A DNA stretch of 64,000 nt from Candidatus Heimdallarchaeota archaeon (GTDB taxonomy: Archaea; Asgardarchaeota; Heimdallarchaeia; Hodarchaeales; Hodarchaeaceae), in the NCBI GenBank assembly GCA_020353515.1, contig CP070695.1, forward strand, positions 2,674,155 to 2,738,154. Direction: 5' to 3'. The first letter of the stretch is position 1; the number at the start of each line of letters is the position of its first letter. The notes under the pieces are model-generated. The model was not told the origin of the DNA and searched no databases. It was given only the letters and a program-made list of their open reading frames with translations. Position numbers and translations under genes: made by a program. Below, one piece after another: positions 9,405-56,076 of the stretch.

Positions 9405-10214
9405 TTATTCATTTATATTCTGAAGTTTAAGATAAATCCATTTCATTACTCCCATTAAGGTTGTTAGCTCGCGTCCCGTGACGTATCCTCGTGATAGAAC
9501 ATTTGAAAAAGCTTGTAATGCCACGTGATGTTTTTCAGGACGATATCCTGTAAAATTAATTACCTGTTCAAAATAGCTCTCTAATTGTTGTCGTTCTCTA
9601 AATGAAGCCGCTCTATGTTTTAATTTAACCTTAGAATTTTGGTAAATATCCTGGAACTTTTGAGAAAGAAAGTAAAGTATAATAGTAACAGCATGAGAGA
9701 GGTTCATGACAGGATAAGTGCTGTGAGTTGGAATAGTAACCAGTAAATCACATATACTGATCTCCTCATTAGATAAACCAGATGGTTCTCTTCCAAATAC
9801 AATTGCTATCTTATTGTAAGAAAATTCTTCTTTCAATAATCGTTCTGGAGGGATTGTTATCCTTTTCAGATTATAATCACTCCCAACTCGGGCTGTAGTG
9901 CCAATCATAAAATCGAAGCTTTCACGTACATCCTGAAGATCCATAACAAGCTGAGCTTGATTAATTATCATATCAGCACGGCGAGCAACAACCTTGATCT
10001 CTGGATTTGATAAGTCAAGAATAGGATTGGTTATTATAAGGTTTGAAAATCCAAAATTCATCATCACACGGGCAATATTACCTAAATTTTGAGGTTTGCT
10101 TGGTTGTACTAGAATTACAGACGCAAAATCCCATGTCATATTCTTTTTTAACGTATCCGAGTTAGAATTTTTGATCATTTTAATCATCTCAATGTAAAAA
10201 TGACTCCTATGCAT
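9405..10214 (-). CDS. trmJ: tRNA C32/U32 2'-O-methyltransferase, TrmJ/TrmH SPOUT family (true start likely further downstream)
   Basis: NLGNIARVMMNFG, GTTAR, VFGREPSGLSNEE, YPVMNLSHAV. Confidence 0.9.
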   Translation of the reverse strand: MHRSHFYIEMIKMIKNSNSDTLKKNMTWDFASVILVQPSKPQNLGNIARVMMNFGFSNLIITNPILDLSNPEIKVVARRADMIINQAQLVMDLQDVRESFDFMIGTTARVGSDYNLKRITIPPERLLKEEFSYNKIAIVFGREPSGLSNEEISICDLLVTIPTHSTYPVMNLSHAVTIILYFLSQKFQDIYQNSKVKLKHRAASFRERQQLESYFEQVINFTGYRPEKHHVALQAFSNVLSRGYVTGRELTTLMGVMKWIYLKLQNINE

Positions 10215-45294: not shown

Positions 45295-46539
45295 GTGAGA
45301 GGCTTACTATTGAATCAATACGATAATTCCGATGTAACTTTAGATGAGATATTCGAGGGATATCTGAAATCGCCTAAATTATTTAAACGACGCGATGTTC
45401 TTGACAGTTCTTTTGTTCCTGAAAATCTCCCCCATCGTACTGAACAAATCAAACAACTAGGATATATTTTGGCATCTGTTCTTCGTGGGGCTAAGCCTAG
45501 CAATATTTTATGCTTTGGAAAAACGGGAACGGGAAAAACAGCTGTATCTAAATATGTTTTAAACATTTTAGGCAAAAAAGCACCTCAACATGGGCTTCGA
45601 ATCGAAGTTGCTTATTTGAACTGCAATACGGTTGATACAAATTATCGGGTTTTTGCGGATTTATGTAGTACACTGGGTATTGAAGTACCCTTCACAGGTC
45701 TTGCAACAGATGAAGTCTTTACTCGGTTCAAACAAGGTTTAGATCAACGAGAATCCTTATTTATTGTTGTACTTGACGAAATAGATAGTTTGATTAAAAA
45801 ATCTGGAAATGAAACTCTCTATAATTTAACCCGAATTAATTCTGATCTAAGTCGTGCGAAAGTGAGTTTGATTGGTATATCTAACGATTTGAAATTTAAA
45901 GAATATCTGGATCCACGAGTATTATCATCACTATCAGAAGAAGAGCTTGTTTTCAAACCCTATGAAGCTCCTGAAATTACTGATATATTAGTTGAGAGAG
46001 CTGAATTAGCATTCCAAAACAAAACTTTATCTGAAGGTGTTATCAATATGATAGCAGCGATAGCTGCTCAAGAACATGGGGATGCTCGTAGAGCGATTGA
46101 CCTTTTACGTGTCTCTGCTGAGATAGCTGAGAGAGAAGGGACTGAAAAAATAAATCAGGCACATGTTAAAAAGGCACAAGGGGCAATAGAGAGAAATACT
46201 TTAACTGAGGTAATTAGTACCTTACCATTACAATCAAAAATGGTAATTCTATCCATCTATGTGTTAGAGAGAATTACTGATAATACTGAAACAGTTTCTA
46301 CTGGAGATGTCTATGAAGAATATGCACGTATATGCAAAGAGCTGGGAATGGATTCCTTAACCCAAAGGCGTGTTGGTGATCTAATTAACGAATTAGATGC
46401 TTTGGGGATAATTAGTGCCCGAGTTGTATCAAGAGGTAGACATGGCCGAACAAAAGAAATACGGTTTAGTATCCCAAAATCATTATTAGAAATGACTATA
46501 AAGGAAGATAAGATGATTTCAGGAAAGATTGCGCTATAA
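45295..46539 (+). CDS. cdc6: Orc1/Cdc6 replication initiator
   Basis: PENLPHR, GKTGTGKT, VLDEID, LDPRVLSSL, GDARRAIDLLR, SRGRHGRT wing. Confidence 0.97.
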   Translation: MRGLLLNQYDNSDVTLDEIFEGYLKSPKLFKRRDVLDSSFVPENLPHRTEQIKQLGYILASVLRGAKPSNILCFGKTGTGKTAVSKYVLNILGKKAPQHGLRIEVAYLNCNTVDTNYRVFADLCSTLGIEVPFTGLATDEVFTRFKQGLDQRESLFIVVLDEIDSLIKKSGNETLYNLTRINSDLSRAKVSLIGISNDLKFKEYLDPRVLSSLSEEELVFKPYEAPEITDILVERAELAFQNKTLSEGVINMIAAIAAQEHGDARRAIDLLRVSAEIAEREGTEKINQAHVKKAQGAIERNTLTEVISTLPLQSKMVILSIYVLERITDNTETVSTGDVYEEYARICKELGMDSLTQRRVGDLINELDALGIISARVVSRGRHGRTKEIRFSIPKSLLEMTIKEDKMISGKIAL

Positions 46540-46570
46540 TTATTATGAAATGAGCCTTTTTTTCCCTATT

Positions 46571-48190
46571 TTAAAGAATCTTAAGATCTATCATCTCTAC
46601 ATTTCCTGAGACTGCATCAAGAATTGGAATTATTCCAAGCGATGCCTTTCCTTCTAATTGGGTTTTTTTTTGGTTGTCTCGTTGGAAAGTTCCACATGTG
46701 ATTATTTTAATCCCCTTATATTCTTCGAAATATGCATGATGTAGATGTCCAGACACAATAACGTCAGGTACCTCATCTATAACTAGATAATCTCTTTTAA
46801 AAGGAGCAAGAGGATCATATGATCCATATTCAGGATAAAGATGACGATACTCTAAAAGGTGTTTTATGGCTAATGTTGGCTTTGCATTAGGTTTTTGGAA
46901 AGATTTTTGGAAAAGCTCATAATTCCCTTGTCCGTGAAATATTAACAACTTCATTTTTTCTAGGGATAACCGGAGAGGATTGCCATGACTCGTTAAATTC
47001 GGAATTGTTAAAAGAGCTTGGCTAATCTGTCTATCAATCGCTGGTTGAGGAAGAGCTGCCTGTGTTGCGTCATGTTCTCCTGGAATAATTAAAATTTGGA
47101 TATGAGATGGAATTTCCATTAATGCTTTTGCTAAGCCTTGGTATTGAGCTTGAAGTGAATATGAGGATATTTGTTCTTTTTGGTCTGAAAATCGTCCTAC
47201 TCCATCCACAAGGTCTCCAACAATAATTATTGTCTTAATTTCTTTAGCAATATTTTTATAAATCGGATCCAGATCCTGTAAAGTTAAAAACTTGATTAAT
47301 TTTGCGAAAACACTACGTGAAAAGTATTTTGATCCAAAATGTAGATCAGCTATGAATAAAAGTTTATGTGGATTTTTAATAGGGTTAAATTGGGTAGGTG
47401 AAAATCCTGGTCTGATAATGTCTCTTCCCCAAAAAGCAGTAATATCCCCCCCTCTAAAATTTTTTGGCAAAATCCCTGATATTCCTATAACAGTATCTCG
47501 GATGATATCTCGATATTCAGGGAAACTTGGACTATCTTGGACCATCACACAATTAGTAATTATTCCACTTTTAGGATCCTCTAATTGAATAACAAACTTA
47601 TTGGTATGCAGTACCCTGGTATCTTGAACCATCCCAATGAGGATTCCACTTTTATCTTTAGGAATTTCTTCTTCTCGCATTTCACTATCTAAAATCGCAT
47701 CAGAATCGTCAAAATTCTCCATAAAAATGCTTGAAAGCTGTTCAAAGCGATTTTGAAATAATTGTCGAAAAGCTGAGAAATCTGGTTTAGCAGAAGCTTT
47801 TTCTGGAATGTCTAGTTTTACAGTTATTTGCGAAGAAGGGTGAGGAACAGTCTGAGTAAAGTCTTGTTCTATCTGAAGTTCGTCAGATTGCACTAATGAT
47901 TTATTTGTCTCTTCTTTAACCGCTCTATCAGTCTTCTCAATGGATAGCTTGGTAGATTTGCCTATTTTTACCGCATTATTCCCATTCACAGATTGAATAG
48001 ACGAATCAAGAGGCTCTAGATATTTTTCTATTAATGGTAGATTTAATACAGGAATATTTGGAGGGATTTTCATAATTTTTTCTCTGAGAGTCTTTTCAGA
48101 GATTTCTTTCTGTAGAATATGATCTAGAGCATCAGCTGCAATATTGAAATTGTACTCTAAGAAAATTCTGATTAACTTCGTTCTGTCCAA
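46571..48190 (-). CDS. polB: DNA polymerase D small subunit DP1 (divergent)
   Basis: OB fold plus calcineurin-like motifs DLHFGS, GDLVDG, PGEHD, HG, GHLH; DYLVIDEVPD. Confidence 0.85.
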   Translation of the reverse strand: MDRTKLIRIFLEYNFNIAADALDHILQKEISEKTLREKIMKIPPNIPVLNLPLIEKYLEPLDSSIQSVNGNNAVKIGKSTKLSIEKTDRAVKEETNKSLVQSDELQIEQDFTQTVPHPSSQITVKLDIPEKASAKPDFSAFRQLFQNRFEQLSSIFMENFDDSDAILDSEMREEEIPKDKSGILIGMVQDTRVLHTNKFVIQLEDPKSGIITNCVMVQDSPSFPEYRDIIRDTVIGISGILPKNFRGGDITAFWGRDIIRPGFSPTQFNPIKNPHKLLFIADLHFGSKYFSRSVFAKLIKFLTLQDLDPIYKNIAKEIKTIIIVGDLVDGVGRFSDQKEQISSYSLQAQYQGLAKALMEIPSHIQILIIPGEHDATQAALPQPAIDRQISQALLTIPNLTSHGNPLRLSLEKMKLLIFHGQGNYELFQKSFQKPNAKPTLAIKHLLEYRHLYPEYGSYDPLAPFKRDYLVIDEVPDVIVSGHLHHAYFEEYKGIKIITCGTFQRDNQKKTQLEGKASLGIIPILDAVSGNVEMIDLKIL

Positions 48191-48417: not shown

Positions 48418-50601
48418 TTATGGAGTAATGGCTGCGGGGGGGATAATATCCCATCTGATTCGCCAGATATATATCCATTTATGTGCTGTCCGATAAGCAA
48501 GCTCATAGTATTGCGAATATTCTGCATATTCTTCTGAGAATCCTTTTGTTGCAGGAGCATTTTCTGTTATAGGGGCATATGATTTGATACGCTCAAATGT
48601 TTCACTTGAAACTCCTTCTTCATCGGAGGCTCCACCACCTGTGAATAAAGACCAAAATACAGAGTCATAAAATTGGTCGATATATCCCTGGATATACTGT
48701 TGTCGTGAATCATACTTAAGGTAGTCATCTTGATCTATTTTGACGATATTACCGTTGGCCATTCCAATTCTGATAAACCAAGGAACTTTCCCCAAGTCAG
48801 AATCTAATTGCCACCACCCGTCGGAGACTAAAAGGACGAGATAGGTGACATCGTAGATTTTCGAGATTTTTAATGAGTCTCTAGGATTAAGTACTAACAT
48901 ACATCCAATATTACCTATTTTTGTTTTATTAATCGTCGCATTATCTACCAAAATGGTTGTATTTGAATTCCCACTAATCCAATATCCGTAATCCCACCAA
49001 GAGGCAACAACATCATTTGGCCCTGTATTATAATCTAACCAACTGATGGCTTCTTGCCAGTCATATCCTAGAATAACCTGTTGTCCTGTATAAACTGGAG
49101 TGGAGATAGACGGTGCTTGTGTTGACTTGGCCGCTTGGTCACTAGCGTTAACAAGAGCGAACATTGCAATGATCCCTATAAATACAAACGCTATCGCAGT
49201 TTGCTCATTTGATAATGGTTGGATGAAGCGAGTTTTTCTACGACTTAATGCGAAGCGTTCTTGAAAAGCAAGTACAAAAGGTAGAAGGGTCTGGTCAATA
49301 GCTTGTGCTGCTAGTAATGAAACTGCTGGAGCTAATATCAAAGCTAATCTTACCATAGAGCCCGCAAAATATATTGCTGTAAATCCAAATAATAATAGGA
49401 GGAAATTCCTTTCAGTTGGTTTTAGATAGAGAAAATAAATACTCAGTGGTAAAAGAAAAATCAAAACTCCTGTGTTTCTGAAAAATGTCGACCATGTTAC
49501 TATTTGATGTTCACTAACTGATTTCAAGATTGGTGTTGTATCACGATATATTGGTAGAAGCACGGTAATAAATTTTGATGCCATATTTCCTAGGACACCG
49601 GTTGTAAATAAGACAATAACTCCTATGATTGCTGCTACTGCAATAAAAGGAATAAGTGTTCTAAAACGTGCACGAATTTTACTTGTGCTATAAAATGAGT
49701 CGACATAACGATAAATCTCTGCTAGGGCTACTAGTCCAAGAACACCTAGAGTTGACAAACTATCCGTATTCAGGAGAGATTTAGCACCATTTTTTGGGAT
49801 TAATATCATAATAAAGAATCCTAGAAGAATTGATCCTCCGTATGAAAGGAATAATCTATCTGAATGTTTTCTAAGTAGTAACATAACAAATGCATGAAGT
49901 GCTAATAAGTTGAAGACATAAGTTGCGGCACCCCATGATGCTGATAGGATACCTAAGCATATACCCGCAAGCATCGTTGAACTAAGGGATCCTGTTCGAA
50001 GAGATCGTGCATAAAAATACAAAGTAAGTATAAGGAAAAGGATTCCTAGTGATTCATGATCAAAAAAGCCTACTACGGTTCGTTGTAGATGTCCAGGCGA
50101 AATTGCCAGAAATAAAGCTGCAAGAATGCCAATTTTTTTGTTTCCTAGTTCTTTTCCTAAAAAATACATTGCTACACAGGTTAGGGCTCCCATCAGAGCA
50201 GGTTGATAATAACAGATTACCATTAATGAAATATCAAGTCCCAAAAAACTGGTTAGTTGATGTATTAGGACTGCAGAAAGGGGCGTACCAATGTATTGGT
50301 TTTTTCCCCAGAAACGGCCTTCAGGGTACCAAGTTTGGGGATCTACCCAGCTAAGAAATGCTGCTAGACCATTTTCTTCTATGTACATTGCAGCACGTAG
50401 TTGTGAGTATGGATCGTTTGCAGTAAGAATAATTTCATATGCTGGTTCATGAAGAACCGCAAAAATTCTAACAAGATAAGCTAAAATGAAAATTAATACG
50501 AGTGAGGTATATAGAAGTACCATTTCTTTATTAATTGATGTAACAGCTGTATTATAGCGATTTCTGAGGTCGTTTATGATTCTATCGATGAAAACAGGCA
50601 T
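48418..50601 (-). CDS. aglB: Oligosaccharyltransferase AglB/STT3
   Basis: NDPY, WYPEGR, GFFDHE, SVSEHQ, WWDYGY, DNAT, DLGKVPWFIRIG. Confidence 0.96.
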   Translation of the reverse strand: MPVFIDRIINDLRNRYNTAVTSINKEMVLLYTSLVLIFILAYLVRIFAVLHEPAYEIILTANDPYSQLRAAMYIEENGLAAFLSWVDPQTWYPEGRFWGKNQYIGTPLSAVLIHQLTSFLGLDISLMVICYYQPALMGALTCVAMYFLGKELGNKKIGILAALFLAISPGHLQRTVVGFFDHESLGILFLILTLYFYARSLRTGSLSSTMLAGICLGILSASWGAATYVFNLLALHAFVMLLLRKHSDRLFLSYGGSILLGFFIMILIPKNGAKSLLNTDSLSTLGVLGLVALAEIYRYVDSFYSTSKIRARFRTLIPFIAVAAIIGVIVLFTTGVLGNMASKFITVLLPIYRDTTPILKSVSEHQIVTWSTFFRNTGVLIFLLPLSIYFLYLKPTERNFLLLLFGFTAIYFAGSMVRLALILAPAVSLLAAQAIDQTLLPFVLAFQERFALSRRKTRFIQPLSNEQTAIAFVFIGIIAMFALVNASDQAAKSTQAPSISTPVYTGQQVILGYDWQEAISWLDYNTGPNDVVASWWDYGYWISGNSNTTILVDNATINKTKIGNIGCMLVLNPRDSLKISKIYDVTYLVLLVSDGWWQLDSDLGKVPWFIRIGMANGNIVKIDQDDYLKYDSRQQYIQGYIDQFYDSVFWSLFTGGGASDEEGVSSETFERIKSYAPITENAPATKGFSEEYAEYSQYYELAYRTAHKWIYIWRIRWDIIPPAAITP

Positions 50602-50771: not shown

Positions 50772-51119
50772 ATGGTGTCAACGATGACAAAACAACCCAT
50801 GGATGTTGATTTAGAGTTATTTGAGCTAATGTTTCCAGGAAAACTTGTCGGTAAAGCGGTTATTGATGCAAATGCCCGTATGATTGGCGTTATTCGTAAT
50901 GTTAGAATTCAAATTCCTTCTCCAACTATTAGTTTGACTATAAAAGGTCTTGATACAGAATTTACAGTGAAATCCGAAAATATTCAAGCAGTTGGTAATG
51001 TAGTACAATTGAATGTTACAATAAAACATTCAGAACCTATTGAAATCAATGATATCATTAAGTTGAGAACAGAAATACAGGAAGAGTTAATTCATTTTTT
51101 TTCCCTTCTAAAATCTTAG
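50772..51119 (+). CDS. PRC-barrel domain protein
   Basis: LVGKAVIDANARMIGVIRNVRI...VKSENIQAVGNVVQL. Confidence 0.75.
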   Translation: MVSTMTKQPMDVDLELFELMFPGKLVGKAVIDANARMIGVIRNVRIQIPSPTISLTIKGLDTEFTVKSENIQAVGNVVQLNVTIKHSEPIEINDIIKLRTEIQEELIHFFSLLKS

Positions 51120-51183: not shown

Positions 51184-52047
51184 ATGGTAAATTTAAATCG
51201 TTTGACATCCTGGACAAGACATTTACGGACTAGACGTGGTAATAGAATTTTCTTACAAGCTGTTAAAATGTTTAAATTCCATATGACACCATTTTCCATA
51301 TTATTACAGAGAATTTGTGAAGTTCTTGAGGAATACGATTCCAAATTTACATTTCCTCTTACAGCATCAACAGCTCAATCTAATCCTATACTAGTCAAAT
51401 GGTTGAAATCATCTCACCATGAAATTGCTATTCATGGATATAAACATGTGCGATATCCTTTTCTTTCTACTAAACACCAATTCTTAGAAATCAAAAAATC
51501 TATCCAAGTTTTTAAGGAATTAAGAATTCCCTTCCAAGGTTTTAGAGCACCATATAACCTATATTCAGAGACGACCAAGGAATTAATAAACAAATTTGGT
51601 TTTAAATGGGATGCAGGAATAGGTTTTCATCGTGATTATAGGAATGGGCACAAATTCTTTAAGATTCGGTTAAAGGATGGAAAAGAATCATCCTACACTT
51701 GTATTCCTTTATGTGAATGGTCTGATGACCGTATGATTGATAATTATAACCTCTCATCAGAAAAAATGGCGAAAATACTGATTTACCATTTAGAAAAAGC
51801 TAGAAAGGTTAATGGACTTATTATGTATGATCTTCATCCAATAAGAATTGGACAAAATCAATATATTCAAAGTTTGAGAAGGTTACTCATTCATGCAAAC
51901 AAGATTGATGCTTGGATTCCAACAATTTCAGAGGCAATAAACTACTGGTCTAAGCATCATCAGTGGAAAGACTCTGCTCCTGTCTGCTGTCTACTAACAG
52001 GAGATATTGATAATTTCACATTTTTTGATTACATAAGAAGAATTTAA
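51184..52047 (+). CDS. Polysaccharide deacetylase family (CE4-like) protein
   Basis: HEIAIHGYKH, GFRAPY, FKWDAG, DLHP. Confidence 0.8.
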   Translation: MVNLNRLTSWTRHLRTRRGNRIFLQAVKMFKFHMTPFSILLQRICEVLEEYDSKFTFPLTASTAQSNPILVKWLKSSHHEIAIHGYKHVRYPFLSTKHQFLEIKKSIQVFKELRIPFQGFRAPYNLYSETTKELINKFGFKWDAGIGFHRDYRNGHKFFKIRLKDGKESSYTCIPLCEWSDDRMIDNYNLSSEKMAKILIYHLEKARKVNGLIMYDLHPIRIGQNQYIQSLRRLLIHANKIDAWIPTISEAINYWSKHHQWKDSAPVCCLLTGDIDNFTFFDYIRRI

Positions 52048-52066
52048 GTTAAATGACTGGTTTAAG

Positions 52067-52558
52067 ATGTCACATTGGTCTATAGGAATAGATATAACAG
52101 ACATAAAACGTTTTAGGGAGTACCCACTGTCAAGACATTCACGTTTCTATGACCGAGTATTTAATGAATATGAATTCAGATATTGTACTGATCATTCTGA
52201 CCCTTATCCCCATTTTGCTGGAATTTTTGCAGCAAAAGAAGCAGTATTCAAAGCAGTGGGAAAATTTTTCCCCCTTTCTTTATTTCAAATTTCCATTCAT
52301 CATGATGAAAAAGGAAGACCCACTGTTTGGCTAGAAAAAAATGATAAAATCCCTCAATTGGAAAATAAATCACAAAAAAACTTTGAGAATCTTGTTGTTC
52401 AAGTCAGTATCACACACTCCAGTGCCCTAGCTATGGCTTGGGCATTGGCATTCTTAAAAACTTCTCAAAATGACACACTAGAGGGATTAGATCGATTGAA
52501 AGGTGAATTACAGAGAGAGATTTGTAATGAGTTCGTCGAACATCGATGTACTTCGTAA
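52067..52558 (+). CDS. acpS: Holo-ACP synthase (AcpS-type phosphopantetheinyl transferase)
   Basis: IGIDITDIKRF, FAGIFAAKEAVFKA, GRP, VSITHS. Confidence 0.92.
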   Translation: MSHWSIGIDITDIKRFREYPLSRHSRFYDRVFNEYEFRYCTDHSDPYPHFAGIFAAKEAVFKAVGKFFPLSLFQISIHHDEKGRPTVWLEKNDKIPQLENKSQKNFENLVVQVSITHSSALAMAWALAFLKTSQNDTLEGLDRLKGELQREICNEFVEHRCTS

Positions 52559-54383
52559 ACAAGACGAGATACTTGAACTAGTTCGTAAGGAACCAAGTCA
52601 CAGAAATTATTGGAATGTTTACAAGAGGATTGAAAGATTAGATTTTTCTAATGTTAAAATTCCCTCTGAAGAGCGTATTAGCCTTACCTTGATGAGTTCG
52701 TTCACAATTGATCCGTTAGCTATTTATCTTGATATAGATTGTCGTTTAAACGGGCTTTTACCAAAGATTTATGTTGCACCATTTAATCGTTATCATGACG
52801 AGGTTCTTAATAAAAAGAGTGGTCTTTACAAGTCTCAACCAGATGTAGTACTCTTTTTTATTAGAGTAGAATCCTTAGTAGAAGATATTTTTAGAGTTAA
52901 CTATACTCAAATGAATAAAGAACATATAGAATCAGAATTGGATCGGATCATTCATGTGATCAAGCAACCAATAACTTCAATAATTCAACAGAGTGAAGCC
53001 TTAGTCATTTTCAGCAATTTCATCATTCCAACGTTTTCTCCTTTTGGTATTCTGGATAATAAACAAAACATTGGGTTTAAGAGATTCTATCAATTATTGA
53101 ACTTAAAGCTTGAAGAGTCCTTTCGTCAGAATAACCAAGTTTTCATCTTTGATCTAAATGAAGTCGCAAGTATCTATGGTAAAGATAACTATTTGAATCA
53201 TCCAATGAATTATCGCGGTTCAATACTTTTTAATGAATCGTTCTTATCACGTATCTCTTATCGTTTAATGGGATATATAAAAGCATTGAGATCAAAAAAT
53301 CGGAAATGCATTGTCCTTGATTTAGATAACACCCTTTGGGGGGGGATTATCGGAGAGGATGGATTTAAAGGAATCAAACTCAATATAAATTATCCTGGTA
53401 ATGAATTTGTAGATTTTCAAAGAACTATTTTAAGCTTAAACAGAAGAGGTGTCATTTTAGCAATTAATAGCAAAAATAATCTCGAAGATGCTTTAGAAGT
53501 CTTCCAGAAACATCCCTACATGCAAATAAGAGAAAATAACCTTGCAGCTCATCGTATAAATTGGAATGATAAGGTTCAAAACCTTATTGAATTAGCTAAG
53601 GAGATAAACATAGGTTTAGATAGCATTGTATTCATTGATGATAATCCTGTAGAACGTGCACGTGTGCAATCATCTCTTCCAGATGTTCTCGTCATGGATA
53701 TGCCTTCTAGTCCCGCTTTATTTCGTAAAACATTAGAGGGAATGAATGATTTCGATACATTATCGCTTACGGCTGAAGATCTTCAACGTAGTGAAATGTA
53801 TTATGCAAAGCGAAAAAGACACGATCTTGAAGAACATGTTCAAACACTTGAAGAATTCATTAAATCCTTGGAAATTGTTGTAAAAATAAAGAATACAGAT
53901 AAATTTGTACTCCCACGAGTTGCTAGTCTTTTAAACCGGACTAACCAATTTAATTTGACTACTAAACGTTACACTGAGACTGAAGTTCAACAAATGCATG
54001 ATGATCCAGATAAATTTCGTCTTTATACTCTACAAGCACAAGACAAATTTGGTGATGAAGGAATAGTTGGTATTGCTATTATTGAAGTAAAATCTCCAGA
54101 ATATTGGGTTATTGATAGCTTCCTCTTGAGCTGCAGGGTGATTGGTAGAAAAATTGAAACAACATTTCTAAATAAGATAATTAAAGATGCTAAATATTAT
54201 AGTGTGGAAAAGATAGAAGCTAAGTATGTTCCAACGAAAAAAAACTCATTAGTAAATGATTTCTACCTTAATCATGGTTTTCACTTAGCGCAAGAACTGA
54301 ATGGTGGAGAAACACATTGGATACTCCACTCAACTGATTTTAATGTAGTATATCCTAATTACATTCATGTAGTTGAAGAATGA
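52503..54383 (+). CDS. FkbH-like HAD-IIIC glyceryl-ACP transferase/phosphatase (likely start ATG 52527)
   Basis: KCIVLDLDNTLWGGIIGEDG, SKNN, INWNDK, FIDDNPVER, RTNQFNLTT, DKFGDEG, FLLSCRVIGR. Confidence 0.93.
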   Translation: MNYRERFVMSSSNIDVLRKQDEILELVRKEPSHRNYWNVYKRIERLDFSNVKIPSEERISLTLMSSFTIDPLAIYLDIDCRLNGLLPKIYVAPFNRYHDEVLNKKSGLYKSQPDVVLFFIRVESLVEDIFRVNYTQMNKEHIESELDRIIHVIKQPITSIIQQSEALVIFSNFIIPTFSPFGILDNKQNIGFKRFYQLLNLKLEESFRQNNQVFIFDLNEVASIYGKDNYLNHPMNYRGSILFNESFLSRISYRLMGYIKALRSKNRKCIVLDLDNTLWGGIIGEDGFKGIKLNINYPGNEFVDFQRTILSLNRRGVILAINSKNNLEDALEVFQKHPYMQIRENNLAAHRINWNDKVQNLIELAKEINIGLDSIVFIDDNPVERARVQSSLPDVLVMDMPSSPALFRKTLEGMNDFDTLSLTAEDLQRSEMYYAKRKRHDLEEHVQTLEEFIKSLEIVVKIKNTDKFVLPRVASLLNRTNQFNLTTKRYTETEVQQMHDDPDKFRLYTLQAQDKFGDEGIVGIAIIEVKSPEYWVIDSFLLSCRVIGRKIETTFLNKIIKDAKYYSVEKIEAKYVPTKKNSLVNDFYLNHGFHLAQELNGGETHWILHSTDFNVVYPNYIHVVEE

Positions 54384-54628
54384 TGGCTGATGTGCAAGTT
54401 ATATTTGAAGATGTAATTTCTAAGATACTTTTATTAGAGAATGAGCAAATTAATGACAATGTTTCTAGAGATAATCTTGAAGAGTGGGATTCAATGACTC
54501 ATCTCGCGTTAATTTCAGAGTTAGAACAGGTTTTTGACATCATTCTCTCTGATGATGACGTTACGGAGATTAAAACAATTGGTGATATAAAAAAAACCTT
54601 GAATAAATATGAAATTAAGGTAAAATAG
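54380..54628 (+). CDS. Acyl carrier protein
   Basis: Acidic 82-aa protein with WDSMTHLALISELEQVFDI (phosphopantetheine Ser). Confidence 0.92.
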   Translation: MMADVQVIFEDVISKILLLENEQINDNVSRDNLEEWDSMTHLALISELEQVFDIILSDDDVTEIKTIGDIKKTLNKYEIKVK

Positions 54629-54769
54629 TAAACCATCTATAGAGAAGCCAATTAGATAAACCAAAGACTTCTTAATCATCCTGTAATTTATTCTTAATCA
54701 ATTGAGAGAAAAAATGCTTCCATTTTGATTAAGAAAGAAAAGAATCGGGATTGTCAAAAGAAGAATAAA

Positions 54770-55177
54770 TTACTTTTCTAGAAATTCTATAAGATAGCGA
54801 GTGGGTGTCCATACAAAAGCTATTCGACGTCCATTAAAAAGTGCTGAAGGTGTAGGCTTTTGGGCAATAACAGCATGATTTTCTCTAGCTTTTTTCAGCG
54901 CGTCTTCTAGAGAGGGAACCTCAATACAGTAGTGATAAAGGCGATTATTTTGCTTCAAAATGCTATCGATAGGAGATGGTACGTCTAAAGGTTCTACTAA
55001 TTCAAGTAAACAGCTTTCAATTGGTTGTCCATTTATCGCTAGAAGTACCACCCTTACTTTCAATATTTTATCGTCAACAACAGGACTAACCTGCTTCATA
55101 CCCAGAGCTTGAATATGAAATTCTAAAGTTTTTTCTATTGAGGTTACAGCAACACCTACATGGTGTATCTTGGTCAT
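54770..55177 (-). CDS. VOC-family protein (methylmalonyl-CoA epimerase-like)
   Basis: IHHVGVAV, LELVEP, YHYCIEV, IEFLE. Confidence 0.85.
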   Translation of the reverse strand: MTKIHHVGVAVTSIEKTLEFHIQALGMKQVSPVVDDKILKVRVVLLAINGQPIESCLLELVEPLDVPSPIDSILKQNNRLYHYCIEVPSLEDALKKARENHAVIAQKPTPSALFNGRRIAFVWTPTRYLIEFLEK

Positions 55178-55185
55178 AAGCTATT

Positions 55186-55653
55186 TCATCCTTTTGGTGG
55201 TACTTTTTTAGGTCTTGGTAACTCAGAAACTACTCGTGCAGGATTACCTGCAGCGATTTTGAAGTCTGGTATATCCCGATTAACCACAGAACCAGCGGCT
55301 ATAATTGAACCTATGCCAATAGTTACTCCTGGAAGAATAATTGCCCCAGTTCCAATCCAAGCTCCTTGTTTGATGAGTACAGCTTGTGATGGTTGTTTAA
55401 ATATGTTTGTTTGGTGGTGATATGGACTTCCTCCTGAATGGGCTAAAATTGATACCATGGGGCCAACACTGACATCATCCTCAAGAGTAATCAAATGGGG
55501 AAACTCTCCATCAAAAAAAACTAAATTGGCAATATAGACTCGTTTACCAATCTTTACACCACATTTTCGCCATACACTAGCTCTAAATTGGTAAATAGGG
55601 GCAATCCAAGCAAGCATACGAAAAATTCTTCCTAAAGTTCTACCCAAGGACAC
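55186..55653 (-). CDS. Hexapeptide-repeat (LbH) O-acyltransferase
   Basis: GVKIGKRVYI, AWIGTGAIILPGVTIG..SIIAAGSVV...AGNPARVV. Confidence 0.88.
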   Translation of the reverse strand: MSLGRTLGRIFRMLAWIAPIYQFRASVWRKCGVKIGKRVYIANLVFFDGEFPHLITLEDDVSVGPMVSILAHSGGSPYHHQTNIFKQPSQAVLIKQGAWIGTGAIILPGVTIGIGSIIAAGSVVNRDIPDFKIAAGNPARVVSELPRPKKVPPKG

Positions 55654-55668
55654 TCAACAACCATTGGT

Positions 55669-56076
55669 TTATTTCTTATTCCAAGAATTTCTCTGAATTG
55701 AAGCAATTTTGATTGAAATCTCTATTAACATATCTATTATCTGTAGGATATTTTTCATTTCTTCTATCTTCTCACAGTCAGCAAGTTTTTGAGCCATAAA
55801 GTTTAATTTTCCAGTTAAAATATCTTGAACCATTTCTCGGGTTTCTGAGAAGGAGTGAGCATGTTCAATTTGCTTAGCTTCATCATCAGAACTCACGTAT
55901 ACAGCTTTTCTACCACATTTCGGACAGAATATTTTTTCACTCTTTTTAAATAAGGGAACTTTGCAGTCTGGGCAGGAATCAGCTAACATTGTTGCCCCTG
56001 AAAGCAACAGGGTGCTCATTTGCTTAATATCGGATGAAGAATTTTCTTTGTCTTTCGACATGTCGAGGACCTTCAA
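55669..56076 (-). CDS. Autoantigen p27 / UPF0148 zinc-ribbon protein
   Basis: MSTLLLSGATMLADSCPDCKVPLF...FCPKC. Confidence 0.85.
   Translation of the reverse strand: MKVLDMSKDKENSSSDIKQMSTLLLSGATMLADSCPDCKVPLFKKSEKIFCPKCGRKAVYVSSDDEAKQIEHAHSFSETREMVQDILTGKLNFMAQKLADCEKIEEMKNILQIIDMLIEISIKIASIQRNSWNKK

Follow-up and report, generated by a model that had tools for sequence, protein, structure and literature searches.

A carrier-protein gene cassette next to aglB in Asgard archaea that may tailor sugars of the N-glycosylation pathway

We analyzed a 64,000-nucleotide stretch of DNA (the window, i.e., positions 2,674,155-2,738,154 of contig CP070695.1, GenBank assembly GCA_020353515.1) from the closed, single-contig 4.94 Mb genome of a Hodarchaeales-type Asgard archaeon. 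Six genes at 51184-55653 encode a CE4 deacetylase, an AcpS-type 4'-phosphopantetheinyl transferase (PPTase), an FkbH-type enzyme, a stand-alone acyl carrier protein (ACP), a VOC-fold protein and a small LbH acyltransferase. We propose, at roughly even chances, that this cassette is a self-contained carrier-protein unit that tailors a sugar of the N-glycosylation pathway, in which FkbH would make glyceryl-ACP and the LbH enzyme would re-acylate a position exposed by CE4. The proposal builds on gene identities, catalytic motifs, the behavior of the cassette as a unit, its conservation and its linkage to the oligosaccharyltransferase gene aglB, all of which were observed in the genomes compared.

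A six-gene unit and the carrier-protein content of the genome

The acpS, fkbH and ACP genes follow the CE4 gene on the same strand and overlap each other (acpS/fkbH by 32 nt, fkbH/ACP by 4 nt), and the VOC and LbH genes are convergent with these four. All six were found at the positions given in the first-pass annotation of this DNA, and the motifs quoted there (DLDNTLW, SCR and WDSM) were all located in the window proteins. The distance between acpS and aglB, put at 1.5 kb in that annotation, measured 1.47 kb from the aglB start at 50601, and the CE4 gene begins 0.58 kb from the same point.

Within the genus, the cassette occupies a convergent intergenic spacer. In four congeners without FkbH (L081-L084), the two genes that bound this spacer, orf115 and the gene of a p27-type zinc-ribbon protein, lie only 6-57 nt apart at the same site. 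These empty-site genomes retain both flanks, with the small subunit of DNA polymerase D (PolD-S), AglB and orf115 encoded to one side of the site and p27 and ValRS to the other. Since orf115 and p27 abut there, we conclude that the six genes come and go together: 4.5 kb is either present or absent, including the VOC and LbH genes. Within the genus, the distribution of the ACPS domain matches that of FkbH exactly: all 10 other genomes with FkbH contain it, and all 11 genomes that lack FkbH are also without it. Six or more independently assembled genomes of the genus have the cassette at the same site and in the same order. In the window, we found neither flanking repeats nor mobile-element genes bounding the cassette. 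Its GC content (0.33-0.35) equals that of the flanks, where core archaeal genes are located, i.e., those of Cdc6/Orc1, PolD-S, AglB, ValRS and RpoB. The boundary protein orf115 had no Pfam or NCBIfam match; it is 73-93% identical among congeners and is kept with or without the cassette.

A whole-genome family search returned one PP-binding domain and one ACPS domain, both inside the cassette. The only ACP and the only PPTase of the genome thus belong to the same unit, which bears out the earlier description of a self-contained pathway. The search found no MBOAT protein and no FabH-type C-terminal domain (ACP_syn_III_C). Matches to the ketoacyl-synt family were weak and fell in proteins of about 400 residues; all four archaeal control genomes match this family too. 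We read these matches as thiolases, which would leave the genome with no true ketosynthase. FkbI/K dehydrogenases and the FkbG methyltransferase were absent from the cassette and from its conserved neighbors. Because the genome has no second carrier domain, MBOAT, ACP_syn_III_C or true ketosynthase, we exclude a polyketide synthase (PKS), nonribosomal peptide synthetase (NRPS) or fatty-acid synthase (FAS) partner elsewhere in it. The absence of PKS/NRPS, FAS and MBOAT genes, claimed at first for the window, hence extends to the whole genome, and the search for MBOAT or PKS partners that had been suggested found none.

ACP and ACP synthase are reported missing from nearly all archaea (bioRxiv 10.1101/2024.07.05.601840), in agreement with the general statement that archaea lack ACP/AcpS. 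In this class the statement holds less well, as sister families carry a PPTase within a megasynthase. A PPTase domain was found in 34 of 40 relatives from other families, mostly, in the cases listed, within an open reading frame (ORF) of about 3,300-3,600 residues. One such ORF of about 3,350 residues, from another family of the same class (L079:2520-12572, plus strand; G032:C146), comprises an NMO-type enoyl reductase, a ketosynthase, an acyltransferase, a ketosynthase-like region, an ACP, a ketoreductase, two dehydratases and a C-terminal Sfp-type PPTase, and a carboxyltransferase gene precedes it. By its domains it looks like a type I FAS/PKS or polyunsaturated fatty acid synthase-like megasynthase of Heimdallarchaeia. 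Similar frames occur in G025, G033, G049 and others; such an ORF was not found in the window's genus.

Table 1. Cassette genes and adjoining genes in the window
Feature	Coordinates	Strand	Family match
AglB/STT3 oligosaccharyltransferase, cassette neighbor outside the indel unit	48418..50601	-	PF02516, 179 bits
orf115, small conserved protein, left boundary of the cassette insertion site	50772..51119	+	
CE4 (NodB-fold) deacetylase	51184..52047	+	Polysacc_deac_1 (PF01522), 56.2 bits vs cut-off 23.1; DUF2334
AcpS-type 4'-phosphopantetheinyl transferase	52067..52558	+	PF01648, 65.2 bits vs 25
FkbH-type three-domain enzyme	52527..54383	+	TIGR01686, 319.6 bits vs cut-off 146.65
Stand-alone ACP, 82 aa	54380..54628	+	PP-binding PF00550, 25.4 bits vs 20.8
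VOC-fold metalloenzyme, accessory cassette member	54770..55177	-	Glyoxalase_4, 52.6 bits vs 27
Small LbH acyltransferase, 155 aa	55186..55653	-	Hexapep, 40 bits
p27-type zinc-ribbon protein, right boundary, outside the cassette	55669..56076	-	PF06677, 60 bits

Catalytic features of the cassette proteins

AcpS scored above the cut-off of two further families (TIGR00556, 69.5 bits versus 45.35; TIGR00516, 62 versus 59.8), and its residues D9, E58 and K62 are conserved in the alignment of cassette orthologues. FkbH is composed of an FkbH_N domain, a HAD-IIIC phosphatase domain and a C-terminal cysteine acyltransferase domain. It also exceeded the cut-offs of TIGR01681 (70.4 versus 35.75 bits) and FkbH_N (PF21211; 39.6 versus 27), and its N-terminal half matches the structure of BF1531 from Bacteroides fragilis (PDB 3slr) at 1.4e-46. 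The longest possible reading frame starts at GTG 52503, and the database protein (618 aa) begins at ATG 52527. D273 and D275 of the DLDNTLW motif, S323-K324, K357, D379-D380 and the S543-C544-R545 (SCR) triad are conserved in at least 95% of 37 orthologues. The proteins closest to the window FkbH carry the submitter labels Hodarchaeota, Hodarchaeales, Heimdallarchaeota or Promethearchaeota. By family membership, FkbH is a predicted glyceryl-ACP loader that would draw on 1,3-bisphosphoglycerate, which is the role of the FkbH/ACP pairs biochemically characterized so far, all of them serving PKS pathways (PMC7489565). At two loci, a gene for phosphoglycerate kinase, which makes 1,3-bisphosphoglycerate, lies near the cassette, i.e., at about 2 kb in one and about 8.5 kb in the other (L086:11020-12210; L035:20647-21866); this proximity may be due to chance.

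The ACP has a conserved attachment motif, W36-D37-S38-M39, with Ser38 present in 19 of 20 aligned rows. In the L057 protein (9422-9658, minus strand), Ala replaces this phosphopantetheine-attachment Ser (WDAM), which could reflect a sequencing error or an inactive carrier. Against the NCBIfam equivalogs for AcpP of fatty-acid synthesis, the window ACP reached 27.6 bits at best, below the cut-off of 66. On these sequence scores, we regard it as a specialized carrier and not as the housekeeping AcpP.

The AlphaFold model of CE4 has a predicted local distance difference test (pLDDT) value of 94 and matched CE4 structures in Foldseek with probability 1.0. Best PDB matches were 3cl6, 1z7a, 3rxz, 3qbu and 8t0j, with template modeling (TM) scores of 0.56-0.70, and the nearest group is that of the cytoplasmic enzymes of about 300 residues, i.e., PuuE, 1z7a, 3rxz, HP0310 and ArnD. 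In the equivalents of CE4 motifs 2-5, H84/H88, R121-x-P123, D143 and H218 are invariant, and Y124 and L217 are conserved to at least 90%. The VOC protein resembles methylmalonyl-CoA epimerase at a score below the family cut-off (TIGR03081, 51.9 bits versus 114.95) and conserves the metal-ligand set H6, E59, H82 and E131. Its gene adjoins the cassette in 16 of 37 loci.

LbH is the best-conserved cassette protein, with 49-59% identity across phyla; H72 is invariant and H79 nearly so. It stayed below every curated cut-off (WcaF NF007797, 68.4 versus 192; YvoF-like NF058585, 65.4 versus 300; NF007076, 61.5 versus 347). In the best PDB matches it aligns to the C-terminal two-thirds of SACOL2570 and of the galactoside (GAT) and maltose (MAT) O-acetyltransferases. 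The sequence hence resembles the group of WcaF and maltose-galactoside acetyltransferases at the superfamily level only, and we consider LbH a candidate off-loading acyltransferase. A predicted complex of the LbH trimer with ACP scored 0.47, compared with 0.00 for the best of three controls, which lends weak support to this assignment. The runs agreed in at least 92% of contacts, and partner pLDDT was at least 84. In the benchmark of this score, 58 of 80 solved complexes passed the mark, as did 2 of 110 mismatches; scores of 0.60 or less among these comprised 7 of the 80 solved complexes and both passing mismatches. The N-terminal basic residues of LbH were dropped as an ACP-docking feature; a basic N-terminal segment is presumably common to WcaF-type acetyltransferases. 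In f11, a further family of the phylum, another and longer LbH protein (280-320 residues) is encoded 1.5-2 kb from acpS, past a helicase gene (L052:12059-13018, L053:5997-6854, L063-L065). It weakly resembles YvoF and the Pls/PosA terminal domain, and genes for geranylgeranyl reductase and HMG-CoA reductase are close by.

Distribution, origin and the neighborhood of aglB

About 45 archaeal loci were compared, from the window's genus, a second family of the same class (f4), a Kariarchaeaceae contig, the unplaced loci L077 and L085-L088, 20 f11 genomes and three Bathyarchaeia. Nearly all of them hold the genes for AcpS, FkbH, ACP, CE4 and LbH together, in at least 12 gene orders. Exceptions to this five-gene core are truncated contigs as well as L085 and L086, where no AcpS was recognized. 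LbH comes immediately after CE4, on the same strand, in most lineages. At L086:2223-6896, genes for an FtsX-type ABC transporter (a 977-residue permease and two ATPases) are inserted between CE4 and FkbH.

FkbH scored above the cut-off in 21 of 61 close relatives (with the window's own genome and one paralogue counted). Across the phylum, 64 of 301 sampled genomes had a match, with 0 of 68 in one large family, and so did 2 of 201 sampled Bathyarchaeia. In a FastTree phylogeny, 37 cassette FkbHs form one clade (support 91), to which the divergent archaeal FkbH of L077 is sister (support 96), and this clade is nested among unlabelled representatives of at most 43% identity. Two of the nearest non-cassette FkbHs (L076 and L078, 39-43% identity) stem from glycan loci of bacterial look, which encode a MaoC-SDR protein, a small ACP, DegT, GT2 proteins, a Wzx-type flippase and, in one of them, CE4. 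Relatives of the same class, and one congener, also carry FkbH paralogues that form a clade of their own, at about 30% identity to the cassette FkbH (L028-L034, e.g., L028:9893-11725 and L032:9902-11749), with no cassette genes alongside.

The phylogeny and neighborhood survey that had been proposed for these genes yielded one FkbH clade and a conserved five-gene core across Asgard archaea and Bathyarchaeia. Horizontal acquisition, which the first-pass annotation had called probable, is plausible from the sequences because of the patchy distribution, the indel of the cassette and the nesting of its FkbH clade among FkbHs of glycan loci. The event was not recent, however, as the cassette has the same GC content as its flanks and the clade of archaeal sequences is a deep one.

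aglB is the sole STT3 match in its own genome and single-copy in the genomes checked. In 7 of about 12 arrangement classes, only about 0.1-2.5 kb separate it from the cassette: these are the genus (except L025), Kariarchaeaceae L037, L077, L085, L087 and the bathyarchaeotes BA2 (L036) and G318 (L080). In G318, aglB stands on the opposite side of the cassette compared with BA2. The AglB of BA2 is 62% identical to that of another bathyarchaeote and 33% identical to the window AglB; the cassette therefore adjoins a native aglB that was not co-transferred with it. At L088, genes for an AglH-like Glycos_transf_4 protein, a UDP-sugar dehydrogenase and a sugar nucleotidyltransferase adjoin the cassette. 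Chance hardly explains an adjacency that recurs in two phyla and under different gene orders. Judging from these gene arrangements, we therefore take the link to aglB to be real but facultative: the linkage expected in relatives recurs in independent lineages, and it is missing in f11, in f4-type loci, in L035 and in L086.

Two observations concern aglB itself. In the genome G015 (L016:4927-7083, minus strand), two ORFs (with 206 and 505 aligned residues) take the place of a single cassette-adjacent aglB, a split that a frameshift, a pseudogene or a faulty assembly may explain. In the window, Cdc6/Orc1 and PolD-S at 45295-48190 adjoin aglB, and the PolD-S/aglB pair is also found in L077 and L085; the region around these three genes may be near a replication origin.

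A possible route of glycan acylation and its alternatives

In the pathway we propose, AcpS would use coenzyme A to convert apo-ACP to holo-ACP. FkbH would act on 1,3-bisphosphoglycerate, with the HAD domain removing the 3-phosphate and the glyceryl group passing via Cys544 to holo-ACP. The cytoplasmic CE4 enzyme would strip the acetyl group from an N-acetylhexosamine (HexNAc)-type sugar on a nucleotide or dolichyl phosphate, exposing an amine or hydroxyl on that sugar, and LbH would transfer the glycerate-derived C3 hydroxyacyl group from ACP to the freed position. Where present, the VOC protein probably epimerizes or isomerizes the 2-hydroxyacyl thioester, in analogy to methylmalonyl-CoA epimerase and glyoxalase I. 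AglB would then use the modified glycan. Within the reach of comparative genomics, the observations support the carrier-dependent glycan acylation that the first-pass annotation had called possible. For the acyl linkage, the CE4 step argues for N-acylation and the LbH family for O-acylation. The most specific version of this pathway would have a dedicated ACP system in Asgard archaea (Heimdallarchaeia and a second family) and some Bathyarchaeia that swaps the N-acetyl group of a dolichol-linked HexNAc for a glyceroyl group, or for an epimerized or isomerized C3 hydroxyacyl group, before AglB acts; we hold it more tentatively, at somewhat below even chances.

Several points weigh against this pathway. 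Its biochemical steps all come from family membership and gene order: this applies to the FkbH substrate and hence glycerate loading, to the LbH donor, to the acceptor and its re-acylation, and to the choice between N- and O-acylation. The substrate of FkbH was demonstrated for PKS-associated family members only. Motif 1 of CE4 has no canonical Asp-Asp, TFDD being replaced by TFPL; the Asp residues may instead come from LLTGDIDN, an invariant strand at the C-terminus. LbH groups with WcaF, MAT and GAT, whose characterized members use acetyl-CoA and O-acetylate, and no acyl-ACP-dependent LbH family (LpxA, LpxD) was among its listed family matches. Solved complexes of LbH proteins with ACP (LpxA/LpxD-ACP) exist, and the weak LbH-ACP score may reflect the predictor's memory of them. 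The VOC gene is dispensable, being absent from four congeners that retain the other five genes. Finally, aglB adjoins the cassette at 0 of 20 f11 loci and at none of the f4-type loci, L035 and L086; in f11 the cassette neighbors are genes for a helicase, geranylgeranyl reductase and HMG-CoA reductase.

Known systems resemble the cassette in part. The FkbH/OzmB loaders of methoxymalonyl-ACP and tetronate pathways, e.g., Mad7/Mad8 and Mad14/Mad12, share with it the three-domain FkbH, the HAD motif DxDxT, the C-terminal Cys and a small ACP encoded directly after FkbH (PMC7489565). Unlike these operons (FkbGHIJK, tetronate), the cassette has no FkbI/K/G, FabH-like enzyme or PKS, its partners are CE4 and LbH, and its host is an archaeon. 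The L076 and L078 glycan loci, which hold two of its nearest non-cassette FkbH relatives, likewise combine FkbH with a small ACP, but they pair it with MaoC-SDR plus GNAT or DegT instead of with LbH plus CE4, and they have no AcpS. In Campylobacter jejuni, the fkbH-domain gene cj1302 is part of the flagellar glycosylation locus (PMC7099621), and the flagellin of strain 11168 bears a pseudaminic acid derivative with di-O-methylglyceric acid (PMC3958885). We infer that cj1302 is connected to this glyceric-acid modification. As in C. jejuni flagellin, the product that we expect from the cassette would be a glycerate-derived acyl group on a sugar, which is a known product type.

In lipid A synthesis (LpxC/LpxD) and Nod factor synthesis (NodB/NodA/NodF), a deacetylase frees a sugar amine and an acyltransferase re-acylates it from acyl-ACP; LpxD is an LbH enzyme, NodB is a CE4 enzyme and NodF is a dedicated ACP. 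The parallel is one of analogy and not of pathway homology: the acyl group in the cassette would be a C3 hydroxy acid made by FkbH instead of a fatty acyl group, and its LbH is WcaF/MAT-like and not LpxD-like. In Vibrio cholerae O1, the RfbK-O proteins provide 3-deoxy-L-glycero-tetronyl, which N-acylates perosamine; this short hydroxy acid is assembled on an ACP of its own, and a homologue of hexapeptide-family acetyltransferases probably moves it to the amino sugar. In contrast to the cassette, that system serves a bacterial O-antigen, uses another loading enzyme (no FkbH) and has no CE4 step.

Other explanations were weighed against the same observations. The cassette might still tailor a glycan if LbH were an ordinary acetyl-CoA-dependent O-acetyltransferase with CE4 as its counter-acting or editing deacetylase, and if glyceryl left ACP via the C-terminal acyltransferase domain of FkbH or an unlinked enzyme. 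The nearest LbH families and structures, i.e., WcaF, the maltose and galactoside O-acetyltransferases and YvoF, are in line with this explanation, and so is the weakness of the predicted ACP-LbH complex. We nevertheless consider it unlikely, given that LbH is the sole transferase of the conserved five-gene core and its best-conserved member, that its gene comes and goes with the ACP genes, and that no other candidate off-loading enzyme recurs in the cassette neighborhoods. About equally unlikely in our view is an acceptor other than the protein N-glycan. The cassette would then remodel the membrane surface, and the acylated group would belong to a membrane lipid or to the head group of a glycolipid, for example a sugar linked to polyprenyl or archaeol, or a hydroxyl of glycerol. 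Here, the second-best NCBIfam match of LbH is a heptaprenylglyceryl-phosphate O-acetyltransferase, ArnD, whose substrate is an undecaprenyl-phosphate sugar, is among the structural neighbors of CE4, and in f11 the cassette lies near the genes for geranylgeranyl reductase and HMG-CoA reductase and never near aglB. This lipid-gene synteny is, however, restricted to one family and may be inherited by descent, whereas adjacency to aglB or AglH recurs across phyla, and the score of LbH to YvoF is far under the cut-off (65 versus 300).

Glyceryl-ACP might also, as in bacteria, enter a secondary metabolite of polyketide type, where it would provide a tetronate or methoxymalonyl extender unit; this is suggested by the characterized FkbH/ACP pairs, which all serve PKS pathways (PMC7489565). 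The closed genome, however, holds no other carrier domain, FabH-type C-terminal domain or true ketosynthase, and no FkbI/K dehydrogenase or FkbG methyltransferase is encoded in or near the cassette. As partner genes are missing from the genome, we rejected this explanation as very improbable. Bacterial contamination or an assembly chimera would agree with the typically bacterial nature of ACP, AcpS and FkbH and with a CheckM-type contamination of 7.4% for the genome. Its chance is nevertheless negligible, and we rejected it as well: the genome is a single 4.94 Mb contig, the GC of the cassette equals that of its flanks, these flanks are archaeal (Cdc6/Orc1, PolD, AglB, ValRS, RpoB), and the same site and order occur in at least six independent assemblies of congeners.

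No paper on this cassette turned up in literature searches that combined FkbH with archaea or polysaccharide. FkbH-ACP pairs are already known, and so are FkbH-domain genes in bacterial glycan loci. What sets the cassette apart is that AcpS, CE4 and a small LbH constantly accompany the pair, that its hosts are archaea and that it is tied to aglB. Congeneric genomes with and without it form natural test pairs, with the practical caveat that most of these organisms are uncultured.

The cassette represents a carrier-protein pathway that recurs throughout the archaea most closely related to eukaryotes and is linked to the enzyme of N-glycosylation rather than to lipid or polyketide synthesis. If the proposed glycan tailoring is true, it would be the first carrier-protein-dependent pathway of this kind in archaea and would add a new acyl decoration to archaeal N-glycans. 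FkbH would then serve surface glycosylation, as part of primary metabolism, and not polyketide synthesis, and this role would probably extend to the many uncharacterized FkbH-ACP pairs in bacterial polysaccharide loci.

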